Part shown: one piece after another, positions 1 to 34,839 of the stretch | Layout: each line of letters starts with the position of its first letter | Numbering within the stretch: position 1 is the first letter of the stretch | DNA from: Trichormus sp. ATA11-4-KO1 | GTDB lineage: Bacteria; Cyanobacteriota; Cyanobacteriia; Cyanobacteriales; Nostocaceae | Assembly (NCBI GenBank): GCA_019358915.1 | Contig: JAHHIM010000007.1 | Location: forward strand, 1 to 64,000 | Reading direction: 5' to 3' | Length of the DNA stretch: 64,000 nucleotides | Notes under the pieces: model-generated | Seen by the model: only the letters and a program-made list of their open reading frames with translations | The model's database searches: none | Told to the model about the DNA's origin: nothing | Position numbers and translations under genes: made by a program

Positions 1-106
1 ATACGCCGAACCAACCGATGTAAATCCGGTTGTCGGTGCTGGTGATCCACTCACAAAACCGATCCCATACGTTGGCGCTGGAGCGCTGTTGTAAGGTGGT
101 TGTCAT
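1..106 (-). CDS. psbA: Photosystem II D1 protein, 5' end (runs off the window)
   Basis: Manual translation from ATG at 106: [35 protein letters not shown], a canonical D1 N-terminus; absent from ORF track. Confidence 0.97.
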
Positions 107-23970: not shown

Positions 23971-26556
23971 TTATTTCTCTTGAAAAGTCCAAACTCCCTC
24001 ATCCCAATCAAACTCTGTGGGAGGTGATTGTAACCAATGCTGACACCGGAGAAGATGCAACATCGCGGCTTTGTCCTGGTTATCAACGCCTAAGACTTTA
24101 GCAAACTCAGCTCTAGCAAGGGTAAACTGACGACTGAGATAATACTCACGTCCTTTGTGGTAATGCTCAATAACTTGCAATTTGTCGCTACTAACAGTAT
24201 CGGAACGCAATCCCACCAATTCATAAATGGCTACTGGCTCGTTTCTGCCTTTGACGCGAATGTAATCTAGTTCTCTAGCCCAGATATGCTCTTGGCAAGG
24301 TTTAAAGGTATTATCACTGAGAATAATATCGCAACCGTACTGTTTACTGACGCTTTCTAGCCGGGAACCGAGGTTAACGCCATCACCAATAGCAGTAAAT
24401 TCCATGCGCTTACTAGAGCCGATGTTACCACTAATCACAGTATCAGAATTGATGCCAATGCCGATGTTAATTCTGGGCTTACTTGCGGCGTAGCGACGTT
24501 GGTTAAATTCATACAACCGATGACGCATTTCTACTGATGTTTGCACCGCCATCCAGGCGTGGTCTGCTAAAGGTAAAGGGGAACCAAACACAGCCATGAT
24601 GGCATCGCCGATATATTTATCTAGAGTACCTTTATGTTTAAAAACGGCTTCCACCATCGATTCAAAATATTCATTGAGCATACTCACCACTTCTTCAGCT
24701 GCCAAATTTTCCGTTAAAGTGGTGTACCCGCGAATATCAGAAAATAAAATCGAAACTTCTTTGCGATCGCCCCCTAGTTTAGCATCATCCAATTTCAGTA
24801 ATTCTTCTGCTAATTCTTGAGTCATGTAGCGGTACATCGTACTTTTGAGGCGCTTTTCATCGCTGATATCTTCCATGACAACCAGTGCGCCACGGACTTG
24901 CTGTTGATCGCTAGCATCAGCAATGGTGTTAATCGATAAATTAATACTGTGTTGTTCTGTTCCAGTACTAACAAGTGTGCGATCAGGGTAATATTGCTGA
25001 CAGTGTTTTAAATTATTGGCGTGTAGAGCATCCTGACACCACTTACTAAAGTCACCTTCTTTAATAGCGATCGCCTCAGTAATTAATTTACCTTCTAAAC
25101 GGTCTTCGGCTTCCAGTCCTAATAAGCGCTTGGCACTTTCATTAGCCGCAATAATTGACCCTGATTTGTCCGTGGAAATTACACCATTAGAAAGACTACG
25201 CAAAATGTCCCGTTGCATTTGTTCTTGTTGCTTGACTGTGGCAAACAACTGGGCGTTTTGTAATGCTACTCCCGCTTGAATATTAAAAGCTTCCATAAAT
25301 TCTTCATCGTTACAGTCAAAACTAGCTTGGAAGCATTCGGGAGCCTTGGGCCAAAAAGCCGGATTATATGGCGGTAAATCTCCTGATTTCTTTTTATTAA
25401 CAAGCTGCGTCACCCCAATCAATTCCTGATCGGCATTAAACACCGGCATACATAATAAACTACAGGTACGATAGCCATTTTGCTGGTCAATTTGTTTAGC
25501 TGTTTCCGAGTCAGGATGATCATACAAATCAAAAGGAATATTCAACTTTTGACCAGATGCAGCGACAATACCAGCAAAGCCTTTACCTATCGGTACTCGT
25601 AACTCCCTAGTTAAACCATTATCTTGGGTAATTTTTGTCCATAATTCATGGCGATCGCGATCTATCAGCCAAAGAGTACTGCGATCGGCATTCATCAGTT
25701 CTTTAGCTTCATCCATGACCCGCTTTAAAGTATCTTCTAAATCAAGACTACTTTGACTGAGGGACTTGATTGCTTTCATTAGCGCCGCTACTGCTCTTTG
25801 TTTTTGAGTCGCCATATAAAACGAGCGCGACGACTCTAAAATCAATCTAATTGAAGGAGCAAATTCTTGAAATAACTGTTCATCAGCCGTAGTAAAACCT
25901 TGAGTATCAATGCGCTCTGAGATGGAAGCATCTGCCTGATTTAGCAATTTTAATTTATTGAGTAGTTGCACCACTGCCACTAATTTTCCTTGTTCATTCA
26001 ATAGTGGCAAAGCCAGCATTGTGTAGGTGCGATAGCCAGTTCTTTTTTCTTGTTCCTGAGCAAATACCGAACGCGGGTCTTGATAAAAATCAAAAGGAAT
26101 ATTAATTACTTGTTTAAAAGTGGCTACTTCACCAGCAATCCCTTTATCTGCGGGAATGCGAATTTCTAGAGAATGTTCCCCTTCTCCTTCAGCTAAAATT
26201 GACCAAAGTTCTTGTTTTTCTTCATCTAATAAAAATATAGTTGTCCGGTCTGCTCCTAGTAATTCTCCTGTTTTTAAGGTAATCGAATGCAACATTTCTT
26301 GGAGAATTGTTTCAAACCCATGAGAATCTAACATTGATAGGGTTTGATGCACAATTTGTAATTTTTGCTCGACTTCCGTAACAACTTGTTTAAAAGTATC
26401 CTGAGTTAGAGGAGCAAGAAACGTAGAAATAGTTCCCTTTTTTCTAGCAAGAGTACCCACAGGAGTTGAATTCGCTTGCAAGTAATAATTTTCTTGGTTG
26501 CTAACACCAATAATTAAACCAGCAGTCTCTCCAAAACTACGTTGATGCACTGACAT
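23971..26556 (-). CDS. cyaB2: Adenylate cyclase GAF-GAF-PAS-CYC (CyaB2 type)
   Basis: Two GAF domains (GIAGEVA, GFAGIVA), PAS, FSDIRGYT, KYIGDAIM, GDGVNLGSRLE; N-terminus resembles Anabaena CyaB2. Confidence 0.88.
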   Translation of the reverse strand: MSVHQRSFGETAGLIIGVSNQENYYLQANSTPVGTLARKKGTISTFLAPLTQDTFKQVVTEVEQKLQIVHQTLSMLDSHGFETILQEMLHSITLKTGELLGADRTTIFLLDEEKQELWSILAEGEGEHSLEIRIPADKGIAGEVATFKQVINIPFDFYQDPRSVFAQEQEKRTGYRTYTMLALPLLNEQGKLVAVVQLLNKLKLLNQADASISERIDTQGFTTADEQLFQEFAPSIRLILESSRSFYMATQKQRAVAALMKAIKSLSQSSLDLEDTLKRVMDEAKELMNADRSTLWLIDRDRHELWTKITQDNGLTRELRVPIGKGFAGIVAASGQKLNIPFDLYDHPDSETAKQIDQQNGYRTCSLLCMPVFNADQELIGVTQLVNKKKSGDLPPYNPAFWPKAPECFQASFDCNDEEFMEAFNIQAGVALQNAQLFATVKQQEQMQRDILRSLSNGVISTDKSGSIIAANESAKRLLGLEAEDRLEGKLITEAIAIKEGDFSKWCQDALHANNLKHCQQYYPDRTLVSTGTEQHSINLSINTIADASDQQQVRGALVVMEDISDEKRLKSTMYRYMTQELAEELLKLDDAKLGGDRKEVSILFSDIRGYTTLTENLAAEEVVSMLNEYFESMVEAVFKHKGTLDKYIGDAIMAVFGSPLPLADHAWMAVQTSVEMRHRLYEFNQRRYAASKPRINIGIGINSDTVISGNIGSSKRMEFTAIGDGVNLGSRLESVSKQYGCDIILSDNTFKPCQEHIWARELDYIRVKGRNEPVAIYELVGLRSDTVSSDKLQVIEHYHKGREYYLSRQFTLARAEFAKVLGVDNQDKAAMLHLLRCQHWLQSPPTEFDWDEGVWTFQEK

Positions 26557-27419: not shown

Positions 27420-27543
27420 TAAGTAGGTGGGTGGGAAAATTTATCGCTAGGATAAGGCAGAAGGCAGAAGGCAGAAGGGAAGAGGGTTTTAAGCTGATTC
27501 ATTTTTCTTTACATAGTTGATTTTATTTGTGCCTACCTACTTA
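27420..27543. mobile_element. MITE-like element with TAAGTAGGTRGG ends and internal GGCAGAA heptamers
   Basis: taagtaggtggg ... cctacctactta; ggcagaa x3. Confidence 0.55.
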
Positions 27544-27587: not shown

Positions 27588-27618
27588 AAAAAAATGAGGA
27601 TGGCATATACCATCCCCA
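27588..27618 (-). terminator. Terminator of the variant psbA
   Basis: Minus strand GGGGATGGT-ATAT-GCCATCCTC followed by a T run. Confidence 0.7.
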
Positions 27619-27664
27619 AATTAAGCAATCATAGAAAACAACAATTAAACCTTGAAAAACGCCC

Positions 27665-28762
27665 TTAGCCGTGAATAGCTGGAGCAGTTAAAGCTACGGG
27701 TGCGGCTTCACCCGCAGCCAAATCTAGAGGGAAGTTGTGAGCGTTGCGTTCATGCATCACTTCCATCCCTAAATTGGCCCGGTTAATTACATCAGCCCAA
27801 GTGCTAATTACACCACCTTGTGAGTCAAGCACTGACTGATTGAAATTGAATCCGTTCAAATTAAACGCCATTGTGCTAATACCCAAAGCAGTGAACCAGA
27901 TACCAACAACAGGCCAAGCTGCAAGTAGGAAGTGAAGAGTACGACTATTAGCCGCAGTTCCTAATACTACCTCGTTGAGTCGTCCAACTAAACGACCGAA
28001 ATAACCGTGGGCAGCTATGATGTTATAGGTTTCTTCTTCCTGACCAAACTTGTAACCATAGTTTTGAGACTCAATTTCGGTAGTCTCACGCACCAGGGAA
28101 GATGTCACGAGTGAACCATGCATGGCGCTAAACAACGCACCACCAAATACTCCCGCTACGCCCAGCATGTGGAATGGGTGCATCAAAATATTGTGTTCGG
28201 CTTGAAACACCAACATAAAGTTGAAGGTTCCAGAAATACCCAAAGGCATACCATCAGAAAAAGAACCTTGACCGATGGGATATACCAAAAACACGGCGGT
28301 AGCGCTAGCTAAAGGCGCGCTGTAAGCTACGCAAATCCAAGGACGCATACCTAAGCGATAGGATAACTCCCATTGACGACCCAAATAACAGGCGCAGCCA
28401 ATCAAGAAATGAAAAATGATTAGTTGGTAAGGGCCACCGTTATACAACCACTCATCTAAAGAAGCAGCCTCCCAGATGGGGTAGAAGTGTAAGCCAATGG
28501 CGTTAGAAGAAGGCACGACTGCACCAGAAATGATGTTATTGCCATAAATTAAAGAACCAGCAACAGGTTCGCGGATACCATCAATATCCACAGGAGGTGC
28601 AGCAATAAAGGCGATGATAAAGCAGGTGGTGGCAGTTAGGAGAGTGGGAATCATCAGGACACCGAACCAACCGATGTAAAGACGGTTATCAGTGCTAGTG
28701 ATCCATGCACAGAAACGCTCCCAGACATTGGCGCTAGAGCGTCCTTGTAAGATGGTAGTCAT
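27665..28762 (-). CDS. psbA: Photosystem II D1 protein, atypical QB-loop variant (365 aa)
   Basis: Full D1 with Y161, D170, E189, H190, H198, H215, H252, [13 protein letters not shown] and C-terminal extension; IFQYASFNN replaced by [14 protein letters not shown]. Confidence 0.97.
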
Positions 28763-28834
28763 AGACTAAAATAATTCCAATGATTTTGTGAATGATTTAA
28801 AGTTGCTGTTTCTGGGGAATCAACAACTGATAGC

Positions 28835-28909
28835 ATCATAGAAAAGCTGCTAATTGTTTGCAGTAATTAAAAGTTATTCAAAGTTACAAATTATAGTTAG
28901 CTTTAGTAA
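28835..28909 (-). promoter_or_regulatory. Putative promoter of the variant psbA (-10 TATGAT) with an upstream phased direct-repeat array
   Basis: TATGAT on minus at 28835-28840; AGT(T/A)A at 28862, 28872, 28882, 28895, 28905. Confidence 0.55.
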
Positions 28910-28923
28910 GCAACATTAGACAA

Positions 28924-31900
28924 ATGACTGTCGAAGAAGCCTTAGTAATTGTAGAAAGCATTCTGGGAAAAGCATCTTTAAATGATTTACAAGAAATCAT
29001 TTTTCGACAGTCCTGGCAACAAAAAACATATCCAGAAATTGCTGAAGAGTTTGGTTATGATGCTGACTACATCAAAATTGTGGGCTTTCGACTGTGGAAA
29101 AGTCTCTCCCAAGCAATGGGGGAAAAAGTAACGAAAGATAACCTCCGCGCATCTCTGAGAAGATGGCATTCTCATCAACTCATTACCCCCACTCCCCTTC
29201 GACTGCGCTCACGGCAAGCCAACTCCCGTTCGGCTACGCTCAGCGCCAGCCAACTCCCAACTCCCCAGTGCGATTGGGGTGAAGCCCCTGATGTGTCTAT
29301 TTTTTACGGTCGTTCTCAAGAACTGGCAACATTAGAACAATGGATTATTCAAGAACGTTGTCGGTTAGTAGCGCTATTGGGAATAGGGGGAATTGGGAAA
29401 ACTTCTTTATCTGTGAAACTGGGTGAAAAACTTCAGCAAAACTTTGAGTATGTGATTTGGCGATCGCTCCACAATGCCCCCTCTATTGAATCACTGTTAA
29501 CTACCTTAATTCAAGTACTTTCCCCCCAACAAGAAAATCATTTATCTGCACCTATCTTTGAGCAGATTTCTCGACTGCTTACTTATCTGCAAAAGCATCG
29601 CTGTCTGCTAATTCTCGATAATGCAGAGATTATTTTGAACGCTTGTGAAGGTCGTACAGGTCAATATCGCCCTGGTTATGAAGGTTACGGTGAACTGTTT
29701 AAAAGGATTGGTGAATTTCGTCACCAAAGCTGTTTGTTGCTAACCAGTCGAGAAAAACCCAAAGAAGTGGCGATACTGGAAGGTGAAATGTTGCCAGTAA
29801 AGTCTCTACCATTATCTGGTTTATCAATCGCTGATGGACAAGCAATTTTTAACTGTAAAGGTAGTTTTACCGGGTCAAGTCAGGAATGGCAAAGTTTAAT
29901 TCAATCTTATGCAGGTAATCCGTTAGCATTGAAGATTGTCGCCACTACTATTCGGGATTTATTTGATAGTAATATTGGCAATTTTATTGATGAAGGTACT
30001 GTAATATTCGGTGATATTCAAGATTTAATTGAACAACAATTTCAACGGTTATCAGCTTTAGAAAAAGAAGTGATGTACTGGTTATCTATCAACCGCGAAC
30101 CTGTAAATTTTAAAGAAATCCAAGCTGATTTAGTCTTGCCAATTTCCTCGGCTCAACTACTGGAAGCGCTAGAAGGTTTAGAAAGGCGTAGTCTAATTGA
30201 AAAAGGTAGTGGCTTATTTACATTACAACCTGTGTTGATGGAATACATGACCAGTTGTTTAATTCAACAGACTTATACTGAAATTGCAACTCAGAATATT
30301 TCCTTATTCAAAACCCATGCACTAATTAAAGCTACTGCCAAAGATTATATTAAAGAAATTCAAATTTATCTGATTCTCAAACCTGTTATTCAAAAATTAC
30401 TTTCAGTTTTTGGCAACACAAGCCAATTAGCAAATCATTTAATGAGTATTCTGGCATCCCTGCGGGGTAAGAAACCAATTGTAACTGGATACGTGGGCGG
30501 CAACACTATCAATTTACTCCGCCAAATGCAGGTTGATTTAAGTGGTTATGACTTTTCTCATTTGACGATTTGGCAAGCTGATTTGAAGGGTGTGAATTTA
30601 TACCGGACAAACTTTGCTCACTCAGATTTAACAAAATCTACTTTTACAGCTAATCTTAGCTATACTTTTACGCTGGCAGTTAGTCCAGATGGCAGTCTTC
30701 TGGCAATTGGAGATACCCTCGGTAAAATATCCTTGTGGCAAATCACAGACGGACAGCAATGTTTAACTTGGGAAGCACACGCAGGTTGGGTGCGTTCTAT
30801 TGTGTTTAGTGCTGACGGCCAAACTTTATTTAGTGGCAGTGATGACCAAACTGTTAAACAATGGGATTTCACAGGTCGCTGCCTACAAGTCTTCAGCAGG
30901 ATGCACACAGGTTTTGTGTGGTCTGTAGCTCAGGCTCGCCAACAACACTCACATAGCAGTGATTTAGTCCTTGCCAGTGGTGGTATGGATCAAATGGTAA
31001 AATTGTGGAATGTCCAGACAGGAAAATGTCTCAAAACCCTGCAAGGACACACAGATTGGATTTGGGCGATCGCCTTAACTTCCAACGGTCAAACCCTAGC
31101 TAGTGCCAGCGCTGACCGTACTATCAAGCTTTGGCATGTCAATACAGGTGAGTGCCTCAACACATTGCAAGGACATACAAGTATTGTTTGGTCTGTAAAA
31201 TTTAGTACAGATAACAAAATGCTAGTAAGCGGTAGTGCTGATGGCACTGTGAAGATTTGGGATGTAGTAACAGGATATTGTCTGCAAACTCTCCATGGTC
31301 ATACAGCCCATGTTTGGTGCGTCGCCTGTAGTACTGATGGTAAAACAATAGCTAGTGGTAGCGGTGACACAACAATTCGCTTCTGGGATATTCATACTGG
31401 AAAATGCTGGAAAACGCTACAAGGACACTCCTACACCGTTCGTTCTCTGACATTTACTCCAGATGGACAAACCTTAATTGCCAGTGATGATAACCAAACT
31501 GTTAAATTCTGGGACCTTCTTACAGGACAGTGTTTCAGAACTTTTTGTGGACATGGTAGCGGTGTGTGGGCATTAGCAACCTTTCCCTTGCATAATGACC
31601 CCAGCAGCCAAATATTGGCCAGTGGAGAAGACCAAACAGTTAAATTATGGGATATTGACACTGGTAAATGTATTAAAACCTTGAAAGGTCATACAAATTG
31701 GGTGCGAACTGTGGCTTTTCATCCTCAAGGTAAAACCATTGCTAGTGCGGGTGCTGATGAAACTGTGAGAATTTGGGACATAGATACAGGAGATTGTCTA
31801 CAAATTTTACGGAACCATACGAACTGGTTGCTGTCAATTACCTACAGTCCAGATGGAAAAACCTTAGCTAGTGGTGGTAGCGATAAACAGGTGCGAATTT

Positions 31901-32556
31901 GGGATGTCAAGACTGGGGAATGCCTGGGTATATTATGTAGTCACACCAACATTGTCTCCTCACTTGTTTACAGTCCCGATGGCAAAATGCTGATTAGTTG
32001 CTGTGCAGATGCCTTAATTAGAGCTTGGGATGTGGCTACAGGGGAATGTCTGAAAACCTTTGAGGGACACACAAACGGCATCTGGTCAGCTAAATTCAGT
32101 CCTGACGGGCAAACCTTGGTGAGTAGCAGTGAAGATGCAACCATCAAAATTTGGGATTTTGAGACCTGCCAATGTCTAAAAACCCTGGAAGGACATACCC
32201 AAGCAGTAATTACAGTTGCTTACAGTCCTGATGGTCGTTTGTTAGCAAGTGGGGGAACTGACCAAATAGTGAGAATTTGGGATGTTGAGACTGGGGAATG
32301 CTTGAAAGTGCTGCAAGGTCATACACGATGGATTTATGCAGTTACTTTTATCTATCTTTACCCAGATAAAAATCCTCTGCTGGCTAGTAGCAGTGAAGAC
32401 CAAACTATCCAACTATGGGATGTTGACACTGGTGAATGTGTTAAAGTTCTCCGAACTCCCAGACCTTACGAAGATATGAATATTACAGGTGTTTGTGGGT
32501 TGACAAAATCTCAGCAATTGACACTTTTGGAACTCGGAGCAATTATGAGGAAGTGA
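28924..32556 (+). CDS. STAND protein: putative N-terminal HTH, NB-ARC NTPase, pentapeptide segment, WD40 repeats
   Basis: [22 protein letters not shown] helix-turn-helix-like; Walker A GIGGIGKT; Walker B LLILDN; GNPLAL; about 14 GH...WD repeats. Confidence 0.93.
29186..29268 (+). repeat. In-frame STRR/SDR repeat insertion within the STAND gene
   Basis: ccccactccccttcgactgcgctcacggcaagcc aactcccgttcggctacgctcagcgccagcc aactcccaactcccc. Confidence 0.7.
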
Positions 32557-32952: not shown

Positions 32953-34839
32953 TTACAGTTGTGGTATGTACTGCGCTTTTTCAGGGACTTCAGCATACTC
33001 AGCCACAATTTGGCGGAATTCTTCGCCGTCAATGGTTTCTTTTTCAATGAGCAGATCCACTAAGCGATCGCAGACGGTGCGATGATCACGCATAATTTTC
33101 TTAGCGTTGTCGTAGCACTGTTCAACGATTTCGCGGACTTGAGCATCGATGCGGGAAGCAATGGATTCAGAGTACTCAGACCGGGTTGTCCAATCACGAC
33201 CCAAGAACACTTCTCCTTGTTGGCTTTCCAGCGACAACGGCCCTAAGTCAGACATCCCGAACCGGGTTACCATTTGCCGTGCCATTCCCGATAATTGCTG
33301 TAAGTCTCCACCAGCGCCAGTTGTCACTTCCGCAGGGCCAAACACAACTTCTTCAGCCGCACGACCACCCAAAGCACCAGTAATCCTGGCTTTCAGTTGA
33401 GAACGGGAAATTAAGCCTTGTTCTTCGTTGGGAGTAAACCAAGTCAAACCCTGTGCCTGTCCTCGTGGTATTAGAGTGACTTTTTGCACTGGGTCATGGT
33501 CTTTCAACAAAGTCCCGACTAAGGCGTGTCCTATTTCATGGTAGGCAATCAAGCGCTTGCTTTTGCTGTCTACCAAAGGAGTACCTTCCATCCCAGCCAC
33601 TACCCGATCTACCGCATCATCAATTTCGCGGATGGTGATAGCTTCTTTACGTCTTCTGGCAGTGAGAATTGCCGCCTCGTTGAGTAAGTTAGCTAAATCA
33701 GCGCCAGTGAAACCAGGAGTACGGCGAGCGATCGCATCTAAAGATACAGTGGGGTCGAGTTTCTTATTGCGCGCATGGACTTGTAAGACTTCCAAACGCC
33801 CTTTGATATCCGGTGCATCAACAGTTACTTGGCGGTCAAAACGACCGGGACGCAACAATGCTGAATCTAGTACATCGGGACGGTTGGTAGCAGCAATAAT
33901 AATGATGCCAGTATTACCTTCAAAACCATCCATTTCGGTCAGCAGTTGGTTAAGGGTTTGTTCCCTCTCATCGTTACCGCCGCCGATACCAGCACCCCGT
34001 TGCCGTCCCACGGCATCAATTTCATCAATAAAGATGATACAAGGAGCATTGTCTTTGGCTTTCTTGAACAAATCGCGGACGCGAGATGCACCCACACCGA
34101 CAAACATTTCTACAAATTCTGAACCAGAAATACTGAAGAAAGGTACACCAGCTTCCCCAGCGATCGCTTTTGCTAGTAAAGTTTTACCAGTTCCTGGAGG
34201 GCCAATTAACAGCACACCTTTGGGAATACGTGCGCCCACAGCAGTAAATTTTTCCGGCTGTTTGAGGAAGGTAACAACTTCTTGCAGTTCTTCTTTAGCT
34301 TCTTCAATACCTGCTACGTCGTCAAACTTCACTCCGGTTTTTGCCTCCATTTGGAAGCGAGCTTTGGATTTACCGAAGTTCATCGCTTGGCCTGGGCCAC
34401 CGGGAAGGTTACTAGAGCGACGGAACAAAAAGAACAATCCAGTAATCAATAAAATTGGAAAAATGAGATTCCCCAACAGTCCCCAGATTGCGCCATCATT
34501 CCGCATGGGGTGAGCATCAAAACTAATGTGTTTTTCTTTGAGCTTGCTAATTAACTCAGGAGAGTTAATCGGCAGATCAACCCGCCACCTCTGGACACGG
34601 TTTTCAATATCTTGATCGCGGGCTTCGACAATTGCTGTTCTACCGCCTTCATACAAATCCACACTGATGACACGGTTAGTATCTAAGTATTCTAGGAAGC
34701 GGCCATAGGTCATGCGGGTATTAGCTGCATTTCTACTCATGTCAGCAGGAGCGCCAGCAAACGCCCCTTGCCAAAAGAAAAAGCCAATTACCAAAGCAGG
34801 CAATGTCCAGAGTACCAGGACTCTCCAAGAGAATTTCAT
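32953..34839 (-). CDS. ftsH2: ATP-dependent zinc metalloprotease FtsH2 (D1 repair protease type)
   Basis: [11 protein letters not shown]...[13 protein letters not shown]-terminus, [13 protein letters not shown]. Confidence 0.93.

Follow-up and report, generated by a model that had tools for sequence, protein, structure and literature searches.

We analyzed a 64,000-nucleotide (nt) stretch of the genome of Trichormus sp. ATA11-4-KO1 (contig JAHHIM010000007.1, positions 1 to 64,000; hereafter "the window") that contains a psbA gene encoding an unusual form of D1, a core subunit of photosystem II. In this protein, the loop at the binding site of the plastoquinone QB is rebuilt and lengthened, and we refer to the form as long-loop D1. 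The gene and its loop are located as follows:

27665..28762, minus strand: psbA, encoding a 365–amino acid (aa) long-loop D1 with intact donor-side and non-heme-iron ligands and a 16-residue C-terminal extension
27947..27988, minus strand: rebuilt QB loop, exactly codons 259 to 272 (14 residues)

The results below show that long-loop D1 is a real, conserved subclass of standard (group 4) D1 that is patchily distributed over at least six cyanobacterial families, and that its gene travels as a two-gene module with a divergent regulator.

The open reading frame has no internal stops and scored 764.3 bits against the TIGR01151 psbA profile (cut-off of 596.05), covering profile positions 1 to 360 of 360. 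The closest solved relative of its product is 6wj6_A, Synechocystis D1 2, with a full-length match of 733 bits. An earlier note on this DNA had proposed an intact D1 with a preserved water-splitting side and an in-frame rewrite of the QB segment, and the alignments bear out all three statements. Y161, D170, E189, H190, H215, Y246, H252, and F255 are kept, as are the H272 equivalent, H332, E333, H337, D342, and A344, with a 16-residue tail past the A344 equivalent; this includes all ligands that the note had named. The complete set of ligands of the Mn4CaO5 cluster, the tyrosine YZ, and the non-heme iron was present in the window gene and in every long-loop member compared (n = 25; 12 locus translations and 13 protein clusters).

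One complete canonical psbA, encoding 360 aa, was found in the same genome, on contig C34 (G000:C34). The window D1 is 88% identical to its product with a single indel of +5 residues, and the two genes differ at numerous synonymous sites. The V249I, S270T, and F274L replacements reported earlier are all present relative to this copy. The GC content at third codon positions is 0.44 in the window psbA versus 0.57 in the canonical gene, which is consistent with a gene without constitutively high expression.

In a HMMER alignment to solved D1, the loop differs from the standard protein by I259V, F260G, Q261R, Y262L, an inserted NEVVL, A263G, S264T, F265A, and N266A. It lies between helix de1 and helix E, where residues 259 to 266 are rebuilt and five are inserted. 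The long-loop consensus is VGRTNE[IV][IV]LG[TVA]xAN, +5 residues compared to the standard IFQYASFNN. In a comparison of 13 long-loop and 32 group-4 genes, positions were called class-specific when the 70% consensus residues differ. Only positions 209 (A versus S), 259 to 271, and 275 (that is, S270T) in window numbering were class-specific; S209A and S270T occur in most long-loop members, while I259, F260, and Y262 are present in 32 of 32 group-4 genes. Within the loop, the residues G260, R261, N263, E264, G268, A271, and N272 (window numbering) never vary, although their codons do. At the position aligned to S264, five of the 13 genes encode T, six V, and two A, and the residue that follows is free. 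The hydroxyl at the Ser264 position is thus lost in 8 of 13 carrier genes, the window gene having Thr; Asn266 is lost in all 13, and F274 is replaced by L in part of the class.

The loop is not strain-unique, as shown by the search for other D1 proteins with an altered 259-to-267 segment that the earlier note had proposed. When residues 246 to 290 were compared to a protein collection, 16 clusters matched with 78 to 98% identity versus 62 to 67% for ordinary D1, and the +5 loop was present in 16 of 16 aligned clusters, with synonymous codon variation. Among 401 sampled genomes of the class, 13 (the window's genome, G000, included) from six families contain the long loop, with scores of 80 to 93 bits and a 135-nt footprint. 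A further genome, G245, scored 55 bits owing to a diverged 364-aa member, and the remaining genomes reached at most 52 bits with a 120-nt footprint. Carriers were distributed over the families as follows:

f1: 1 of 18 genomes (G000 counted)
f2: 1 of 3
f5: 1 of 1
f20: 2 of 39
f26: 1 of 39
f28: 7 of 39

When a species-genome collection was scanned with a degenerate nucleotide pattern encoding HGYFxRL[VI]GR[TL]NE, 45 loci were retrieved, in genera including Nodosilinea, Leptolyngbya, Halomicronema, Adonisia, Vacuolonema, Egbenema, Phormidium, Coleofasciculus, Chroococcidiopsis, Gloeocapsopsis, Pelatocladus, and Anabaena. Carriers that can be cultured include Leptolyngbya sp. PCC 7375 and PCC 6406, Gloeocapsopsis crepidinum LEGE 06123, and Anabaena sp. 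CCY 9613. The 401-genome sample and the 45-locus collection overlap and are not independent, and the genome samples are sub-samples.

Long-loop D1 is under strong purifying selection. Between the window gene and that of the nearest carrier, the nonsynonymous and synonymous divergences (dN and dS) are 0.019 and 0.526 (dN/dS of 0.036). The median dN/dS was 0.031 over 23 unsaturated pairs, dS being saturated in 55 of 78 pairs. For the 14 loop codons, the median proportion of synonymous differences (pS) was 0.84 and that of nonsynonymous differences (pN) was 0.19. An intact gene under purifying selection agrees with the earlier argument against a pseudogene.

Three carriers deserve separate mention. 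G027 has only a truncated long-loop psbA (L141:9555-10073, minus strand; L150) of 172 to 195 aa that starts near residue 191; neither regulator described below lies upstream of it, and it is probably a remnant. In the three-contig genome G389, the pair of TetR gene and long-loop psbA (L133) is on a 196-kb contig, C2, apart from the large C1; this contig is possibly a plasmid, which would fit a patchy spread of the module. The diverged 364-aa member in G245 (L096 / L140:9449-10543, minus strand) has the loop LGRTNEI-IGAKAN and the additional changes F211L, M214L, Y254F, F255L, L271N, F274I, and W278L, and it still adjoins a TetR gene with two perfect operators.

These data bear on the plainest explanation of the gene, namely, that it has no special function and is an artefact, a decaying paralog, or a neutral product of psbA recombination. 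Canonical psbA copies are collapsed in the assembly, since psbA ends sit at several contig borders: the N-terminal end of another copy lies at window positions 2-106 (minus strand), and matching psbA ends are found at the borders of contigs C1, C26, and C40. The window gene is itself recombinant (see below), and a carrier with nothing but a truncated copy exists (G027). Against these points stands a second assembly, a Logan contig of 6347 nt that covers 27600-28900 with 0 differences, while the Logan contig of the canonical paralog parts from the window sequence exactly at the loop. The Logan contig was probably built from the same reads as the window assembly and is not independent data; by reproducing the window gene, it excludes an assembler-specific artefact; an assembly artefact was among the outcomes that the earlier note had named as refuting. 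The loop is also conserved over six families despite near-saturated synonymous change, and 38 of the 40 loci whose upstream sequence is 3 kb or longer have a divergent regulator linked to the gene. We regard a functionless gene as extremely improbable.

A second alternative is that the QB site is plugged or re-routed: with the five extra residues ([IV][IV]L) folded into the pocket, water would be oxidized but exchangeable plastoquinone would not be reduced, and electrons would either recombine safely or exit to cytochrome b559, flavodiiron proteins, or another quinone. The hydrophobic character of the insert, with conserved polar residues on either side, the lack of the 264-position hydroxyl in 8 of 13 genes, and the G245 member, in which F211, M214, F255, L271, and W278 are changed as if the pocket were unneeded, would all suit such a site; alternative exits or quinones have been proposed for atypical D1 in the accessible text of PMC4408414. 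A dead pocket would have no need of H215, H252, F255, Y246, E244, L271, and M214, all strictly kept by 12 of the 13 genes in the DNA-level comparison, and the retention of all Mn ligands together with a whole-gene dN/dS of ~0.03 argues for a working enzyme. We consider a plugged site quite unlikely.

In a D1 phylogeny of the kind the earlier note had called for, long-loop D1 nests inside group 4. With the loop columns included, 25 long-loop sequences formed one branch within this group [Shimodaira-Hasegawa–like approximate likelihood ratio test (SH-aLRT) support of 99]. When the loop columns were removed, the long-loop genes were not one clade (five changes needed), and the window sequence and P0005 fell among ordinary D1 proteins from the family to which the window belongs. 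A single clade was not rejected by the approximately unbiased test (P = 0.173, without loop columns). The signal outside the loop is too weak, being either too conserved or homogenized, to choose between one and several origins.

Long-loop D1 fits none of the special D1 classes considered here, and the earlier note had likewise recognized no class for it; it failed all marker tests for D1', rogue D1/ChlF, and D1INT. The window protein has the ligands of a standard water-oxidizing D1 (groups 3 and 4) and lacks the canonical group-4 loop IFQYASFNN of normal length. Group 3, or D1', is marked by G80A, F158L, and T286A; the window has G80, F158, and T286, while the true D1' sequences P0044 and L051 have A, L, and A. 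The markers of D1INT are W126 and W260, and that of far-red D1 (D1FR) is Tyr120, according to the accessible part of PMC9740203. The window has Y126 and a G aligned to 260, compared to W126 and W260 in the D1INT locus L050 of G087. A far-red D1 was rejected because the window has L120 and the neighboring genes are a GAF-cyclase, a STAND gene, and ftsH rather than genes of far-red light photoacclimation. Rogue D1 (group 2) and ChlF (group 1) were rejected because no ligand is lost in the window, while the rogue loci L055, L073, and L083 show D170E and E189A/D. Carrier genomes also encode ordinary D1, D1' (A80/L158/A286), rogue D1, one D1INT (W126/W260), ChlF, and a probable far-red D1. Since those classes coexist with it in the same genomes, long-loop D1 counts as a separate kind rather than as one of them in altered form.

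Further insight came from the same locus in related genomes. The gene and its surroundings (2.7 kb) were compared with 151 genomes from the window's family, and two candidates per genome were scored. In 12 cases, the match extended into the upstream spacer and the neighboring gene and thus represented the same locus; 11 of these could be read, and the twelfth (L127) gave no frame with the pattern used. Of the 11, one (G427) encodes the long loop, and the other 10, including that of the same-genus genome G411, encode a different atypical D1 with the sequence HQLGV[IV]GVFGGAL[VI]..HGYLGRL[FL]WQYVSFxNSR.LHFVLAA[LW]. This second module changes M199Q, A203I/V, F211V/I, F255L, I259F/L, F260W, A263V, N266 (variable), F274V, and often W278L, and keeps Y126 and all ligands; because Y126 is kept, it is not D1INT, which has W126 and W260. 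Among the 401 genomes of the class, the second-module pattern matched only once (G286). The corresponding features are the following:

L112 to L121 (for example, L143:1079-2161, minus strand): second atypical D1 loci, with a STAND gene likewise upstream
Window 27905..28168, minus strand: recombinant "QB module," codons ~199 to 286, with 71% DNA identity to the same-genus syntenic gene

DNA identity between the window gene and its syntenic counterparts varies along the gene:

Codons 1 to 198: 96.0% versus G411, 92.4% versus G427
Codons 199 to 258: 71.1% versus G411, 85.6% versus G427
Codons 259 to 271 (loop): 33% versus G411, 79.5% versus G427
Codons 272 to 286: 71% versus G411, 91.1% versus G427
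Codons 287 to 365: 91% versus G411, 88.2% versus G427

In the 400 nt upstream of the gene, the window and G411 are identical at 383 positions. The synonymous difference pS between them is 0.16 in codons 1 to 198 and 0.22 in codons 321 to 365, versus 0.78 to 0.80 in codons 199 to 271 and 0.78 in codons 300 to 320. Since both identity and pS indicate that the QB segment has a history different from that of its flanks, these data point to a recombinational swap of the QB module at an orthologous locus. As judged from these comparisons, the window gene is a mosaic and no simple old paralog. A recent foreign origin of its QB module was considered and rejected: the best long-loop gene from outside the family is only 79% identical in codons 199 to 258, and no donor was found among the sampled genes.

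We next describe the neighborhood of long-loop psbA. When the neighboring genes of 15 loci were clustered, only two groups, apart from psbA itself, were common to more than two loci, and both are divergent and located just upstream of psbA. The smaller protein (212 to 270 aa; 8 of 15 loci) has TetR_N and TetR_C_29 domains in eight of eight cases. The larger (~1210 aa) is a STAND protein that is full-length in 5 of 15 loci, the window included, and is represented in a sixth by a 336-aa WD40 fragment. Extending the analysis to the 45 loci revealed a TetR gene in 28, which have the layout of TetR-repressed single-gene modules, and a STAND gene, as in the window, in 10, in every case on the strand opposite to psbA. 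Five of the 45 loci could not be assessed (three at contig ends, one with 593 nt upstream, and one without a frame). No other conserved neighbors were found around the psbA-regulator pair in the 45 loci. In locus L159, the TetR gene is split over two frames (matches of 97 and 124 aa), possibly by a frameshift; if this is real, psbA there would be derepressed.

The regulator and the control elements of the window psbA are located as follows:

28924..32556, plus strand: STAND protein of 1210 aa, divergent from psbA, with helix-turn-helix (HTH)–like, NB-ARC/NACHT, and WD40 parts
28924..29184, plus strand: N-terminal 87-residue helical domain of the STAND protein, sigma-region-4/LuxR-like
~29290..29850, plus strand: NB-ARC/NACHT NTPase of the STAND protein
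~30589 to the end of the gene, plus strand: thirteen WD40 repeats
28872..28899, minus strand: three TAACT boxes ~10 to 13 nt apart in the divergent spacer, candidate regulator binding sites
28835..28840, minus strand: −10-like hexamer TATGAT, with no −35 consensus upstream
27595..27618, minus strand: terminator-like hairpin (stem of 10 pairs, 4-nt loop) with a T-run behind it, 47 nt past the stop codon

Outside the WD40 repeats, the first 560 aa of the window STAND protein are 54 to 57% identical to those of two genomes from another family, and the protein is thus an ortholog of the STAND proteins beside other long-loop psbA genes rather than just any WD40 protein. Its N-terminal 87 residues are highly conserved, and an AlphaFold2 (AF2) model has five helices, with a predicted local distance difference test (pLDDT) score of ~90 for residues 1 to 80. 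A Foldseek search with this model returned sigma region 4 (sigma-E), GerE, and LiaR at E values of only 0.37 to 2, none being ≤0.001. A local Pfam scan of residues 1 to 120 gave no match, and an Atlas look-up of the N terminus returned PF26355 HTH_VMAP-M9 (score of 0.88); like the fold matches, this is a lead only. Given its position, its orthology, and the weak fold match, the STAND protein is probably the sensor-regulator of the window psbA.

At TetR loci, the spacer has a recurrent layout: AACTAAC-N3-GTTAGTT is followed by TTGACA, 17 nt, TAnnnT, and a second palindrome that overlaps the −10 element. The two palindromes bracket the −35 element, the promoter is aimed at psbA, and some loci have a third palindrome. 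The strict operator pattern was found in 21 of 28 TetR loci, and the other seven show this arrangement on visual inspection, allowing for one or two mismatches. Among 143 loci examined, the exact operator was confined to those with TetR and long-loop psbA. In four of five whole genomes it occurs exactly twice, both times in the psbA-tetR spacer, with 0 occurrences of a reversed control; in the fifth genome, the sites differ by one base. Since the operators are unique in the genome, TetR appears to control this one promoter.

STAND-type loci instead have in common two or three boxes of sequence TAACT(T), and their −10-like hexamer is not preceded by a −35 element. The TAACT layout is also present in L142, L143, L131, L134, L146, L157, L175, L176, L179, L183, L185, and L145, and the STAND-type boxes are also seen in the 593 nt upstream of one nonassessable locus. 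The earlier note had credited the window gene with its own promoter and terminator. The terminator part stands, in the form of the hairpin listed above; a scan of the gene's minus strand for a consensus sigma-70 promoter found none, leaving the TAACT boxes and TATGAT, and the promoter is inferred from this arrangement to be of the activator type. Downstream of the terminator, at window ~27450-27485 (minus strand), at least three tandem copies of the heptamer CCTTCTG are present, which resemble the short tandemly repeated repetitive (STRR) sequences of heterocystous cyanobacteria.

Two other genes near the module were recorded. An FtsH protease gene (M41 and AAA domains; window 32953-34839, minus strand) lies ~400 nt beyond the STAND gene, and the same-genus genome has it at the corresponding position (L143:7760-9646). 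Damaged D1 is degraded by FtsH, and the adjacency may or may not matter. Directly downstream of psbA is a gene for an 861-aa GAF-GAF-PAS adenylate/guanylate cyclase (window 23971-26556, minus strand), whose adjacency is not conserved in other loci.

The changed loop positions coincide in part with those that confer herbicide resistance. Eight D1 positions, including 264, 266, 274, and 255, give weeds resistance to photosystem II herbicides, as listed in the accessible part of PMC11275581; two or three of the eight are altered in the long-loop class (S264, N266, and partly F274). According to PMC4408414, as far as its text is accessible, S264A/G mutants are herbicide-resistant, bind QB more weakly, and transfer electrons from the plastoquinone QA to QB more slowly. 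In the second module, three listed positions (F255, N266, and F274) are altered in addition to F211 and W278, and its F274V is the change named in the title of a reference in PMC11275581. The earlier note had proposed resistance to QB-site inhibitors or use of a different acceptor; the linked regulator and the altered resistance positions lend this proposal circumstantial support. The combination of changes at resistance positions with a TetR-type repressor of a single target favors inducible insensitivity to QB-site inhibitors. An inducible replacement D1 that no longer responds to such inhibitors is, on sequence evidence, the best single reading of the module, with a likelihood that we put close to, and not above, an even chance. 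A more specific version, which we advance tentatively, is that the private TetR or STAND regulator would detect a QB-site poison made by competitors and switch on a spare D1 that no longer binds it; the QB segment behaves as an exchangeable cassette in that a single genus has two different altered modules at one locus. F211, also changed in the second module, is presumably a resistance position as well.

Under this proposal, the gene would be silent by default and be turned on when the sensor meets its signal, TetR or STAND presumably sensing the inhibitor itself or a related small molecule. D1 is normally replaced through turnover, and long-loop D1 would enter photosystem II via this replacement cycle. 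The resulting center would split water, and its QB pocket would keep H215, H252, F255, and L271 and gain a new distal wall, with changed binding of quinone and inhibitors. Speculatively, the conserved Arg/Thr/Asn/Glu cluster may provide a new proton path in place of the S264-H252 route. The purpose would be to sustain electron flow despite natural allelochemicals of mat or biofilm communities.

A different possibility is that long-loop D1 tunes the acceptor side as D1:2, D1', and D1INT do and is swapped in under an abiotic condition (for example, strong light, over-reduction of the plastoquinone pool, desiccation, or temperature). In that case, the redox potential or protonation of QB or quinone exchange, rather than toxin binding, would be altered by the loop, and TetR or STAND would respond to a quinone, a stress metabolite, or the redox state. 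Exchange of D1 isoforms is routine in cyanobacteria, according to the accessible texts of PMC2776144 and PMC4408414. Most carriers' long-loop D1 has E130, the residue of high-light isoforms; the Arg/Thr/Asn/Glu cluster suggests a re-routed proton path rather than a mere loss of binding; and most of the named carriers belong to genera of benthic, crust, or mat habitats. In addition, no toxin cluster lies nearby in the window or the 45 loci. The known stress isoforms, in contrast, are made by point changes and have no private ligand-type repressor, and genome-unique TetR operators are typical of single-purpose inducible modules. S264 and N266 are classic inhibitor-contact positions, and of F211, F255, N266, F274, and W278, all changed in the second module, three are on the resistance list. 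We consider a stress-tuned isoform less probable, though a serious competitor.

Several observations weigh against an inducible inhibitor-insensitive D1. No biosynthetic gene cluster, efflux gene, or quinone gene lies beside the module in the window, and none is conserved in the 45 loci. TetR and STAND sensors can answer metabolites or stress signals and not toxins only, and E130 would equally fit a role in light or redox responses. The nearest solved relative of the TetR protein is RutR (E of 1e-14), which is uninformative on the ligand. The window itself has the STAND type, for which a DNA-binding role comes from the weak fold match (E of 0.37) and the Atlas lead, and neither regulator is present in 2 of the 40 loci having 3 kb or more of sequence upstream, one of them with a truncated psbA. 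Metatranscriptome pieces that map to the window stretch are mostly <90% alike and derive from other psbA genes; among the runs searched, only the probable DNA source run contains the stretch. Last, an AF2 model of D1 from a 22-sequence alignment had a mean pLDDT of 34 and was unusable for fitting the pocket.

D1 is among the most conserved and most studied proteins, and a major class of herbicides acts on its QB loop. Long-loop D1 would offer a natural means of asking how this loop governs QB binding, protonation, and the binding of inhibitors. The swap of modules at one locus shows that recombination exchanges acceptor-side D1 variants, which affects the reading of D1 phylogenies. As far as we found, this is the first photosystem core subunit under TetR-type control, and the inducing signal can be tested directly. 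If the proposed function is true, a resistance system against photosystem II inhibitors would be older than man-made herbicides.

The long-loop subclass, its pairing with a regulator, the operators, and the mosaic history are new as far as we found. No published description of the loop or of the TetR-psbA pair was found in literature searches that left supplements uncovered, and an earlier mention is possible. In the two strains Leptolyngbya sp. PCC 7375 and Heron Island J, Cardona et al. (2015) counted seven and eight forms of D1, and the accessible text does not mention the loop (PMC4408414); both strains are long-loop carriers in our pattern search. The same text notes A or G at 264 in group 2 D1 and describes QB-site changes only for atypical groups. 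A 2025 AlphaFold survey reported, in its accessible part, structural conservation of the S264/F265 region among the D1 groups (PMC12096807), from which the long-loop class, judged by its sequences, departs. A 2026 preprint, as far as accessible, concerns an extended DE loop in D2, not D1, of Prochlorococcus.

Compared to known systems, long-loop D1 shares with Synechocystis PsbA2 (6wj6_A / 7n8o) all ligands of Mn4CaO5, YZ/H190, PD1, and the non-heme iron, as well as G80, F158, T286, and the C-terminal extension. It differs in the rebuilt 259-to-266 segment with five added residues, in having mostly S209A/S270T, and in its private regulator. Rogue D1 and ChlF likewise have an altered QB site; unlike long-loop D1, which keeps all Mn ligands, rogue L055, L073, and L083 and ChlF L081 have lost Mn ligands. 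D1INT is similarly derived from group 4, combines acceptor-side changes with an intact donor side, and occurs partly in the same genomes (L050 of G087), but its loop is of normal length (IWQYASFNN). Herbicide-resistant point mutants (S264G/A/T, N266T, and F274V) are changed at the same positions as long-loop D1 (S264T/V/A, N266A, and partly F274L). In those mutants, single changes in the only psbA copy answer man-made herbicides, whereas here a whole loop is altered in an extra, regulated copy that has been conserved over deep time, and resistance is only predicted. Inducible resistance modules of the TetR/TetA type and self-resistance by duplication of the target provide a further parallel. 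Like TetR/TetA modules, the TetR long-loop loci have a divergent repressor and two palindromic, genome-unique operators over the promoter of a single neighbor. In contrast to them, the controlled gene is the drug target itself, a photosystem core subunit, rather than a pump or an enzyme, and the lineage of the window uses a STAND/WD40 protein in place of TetR.

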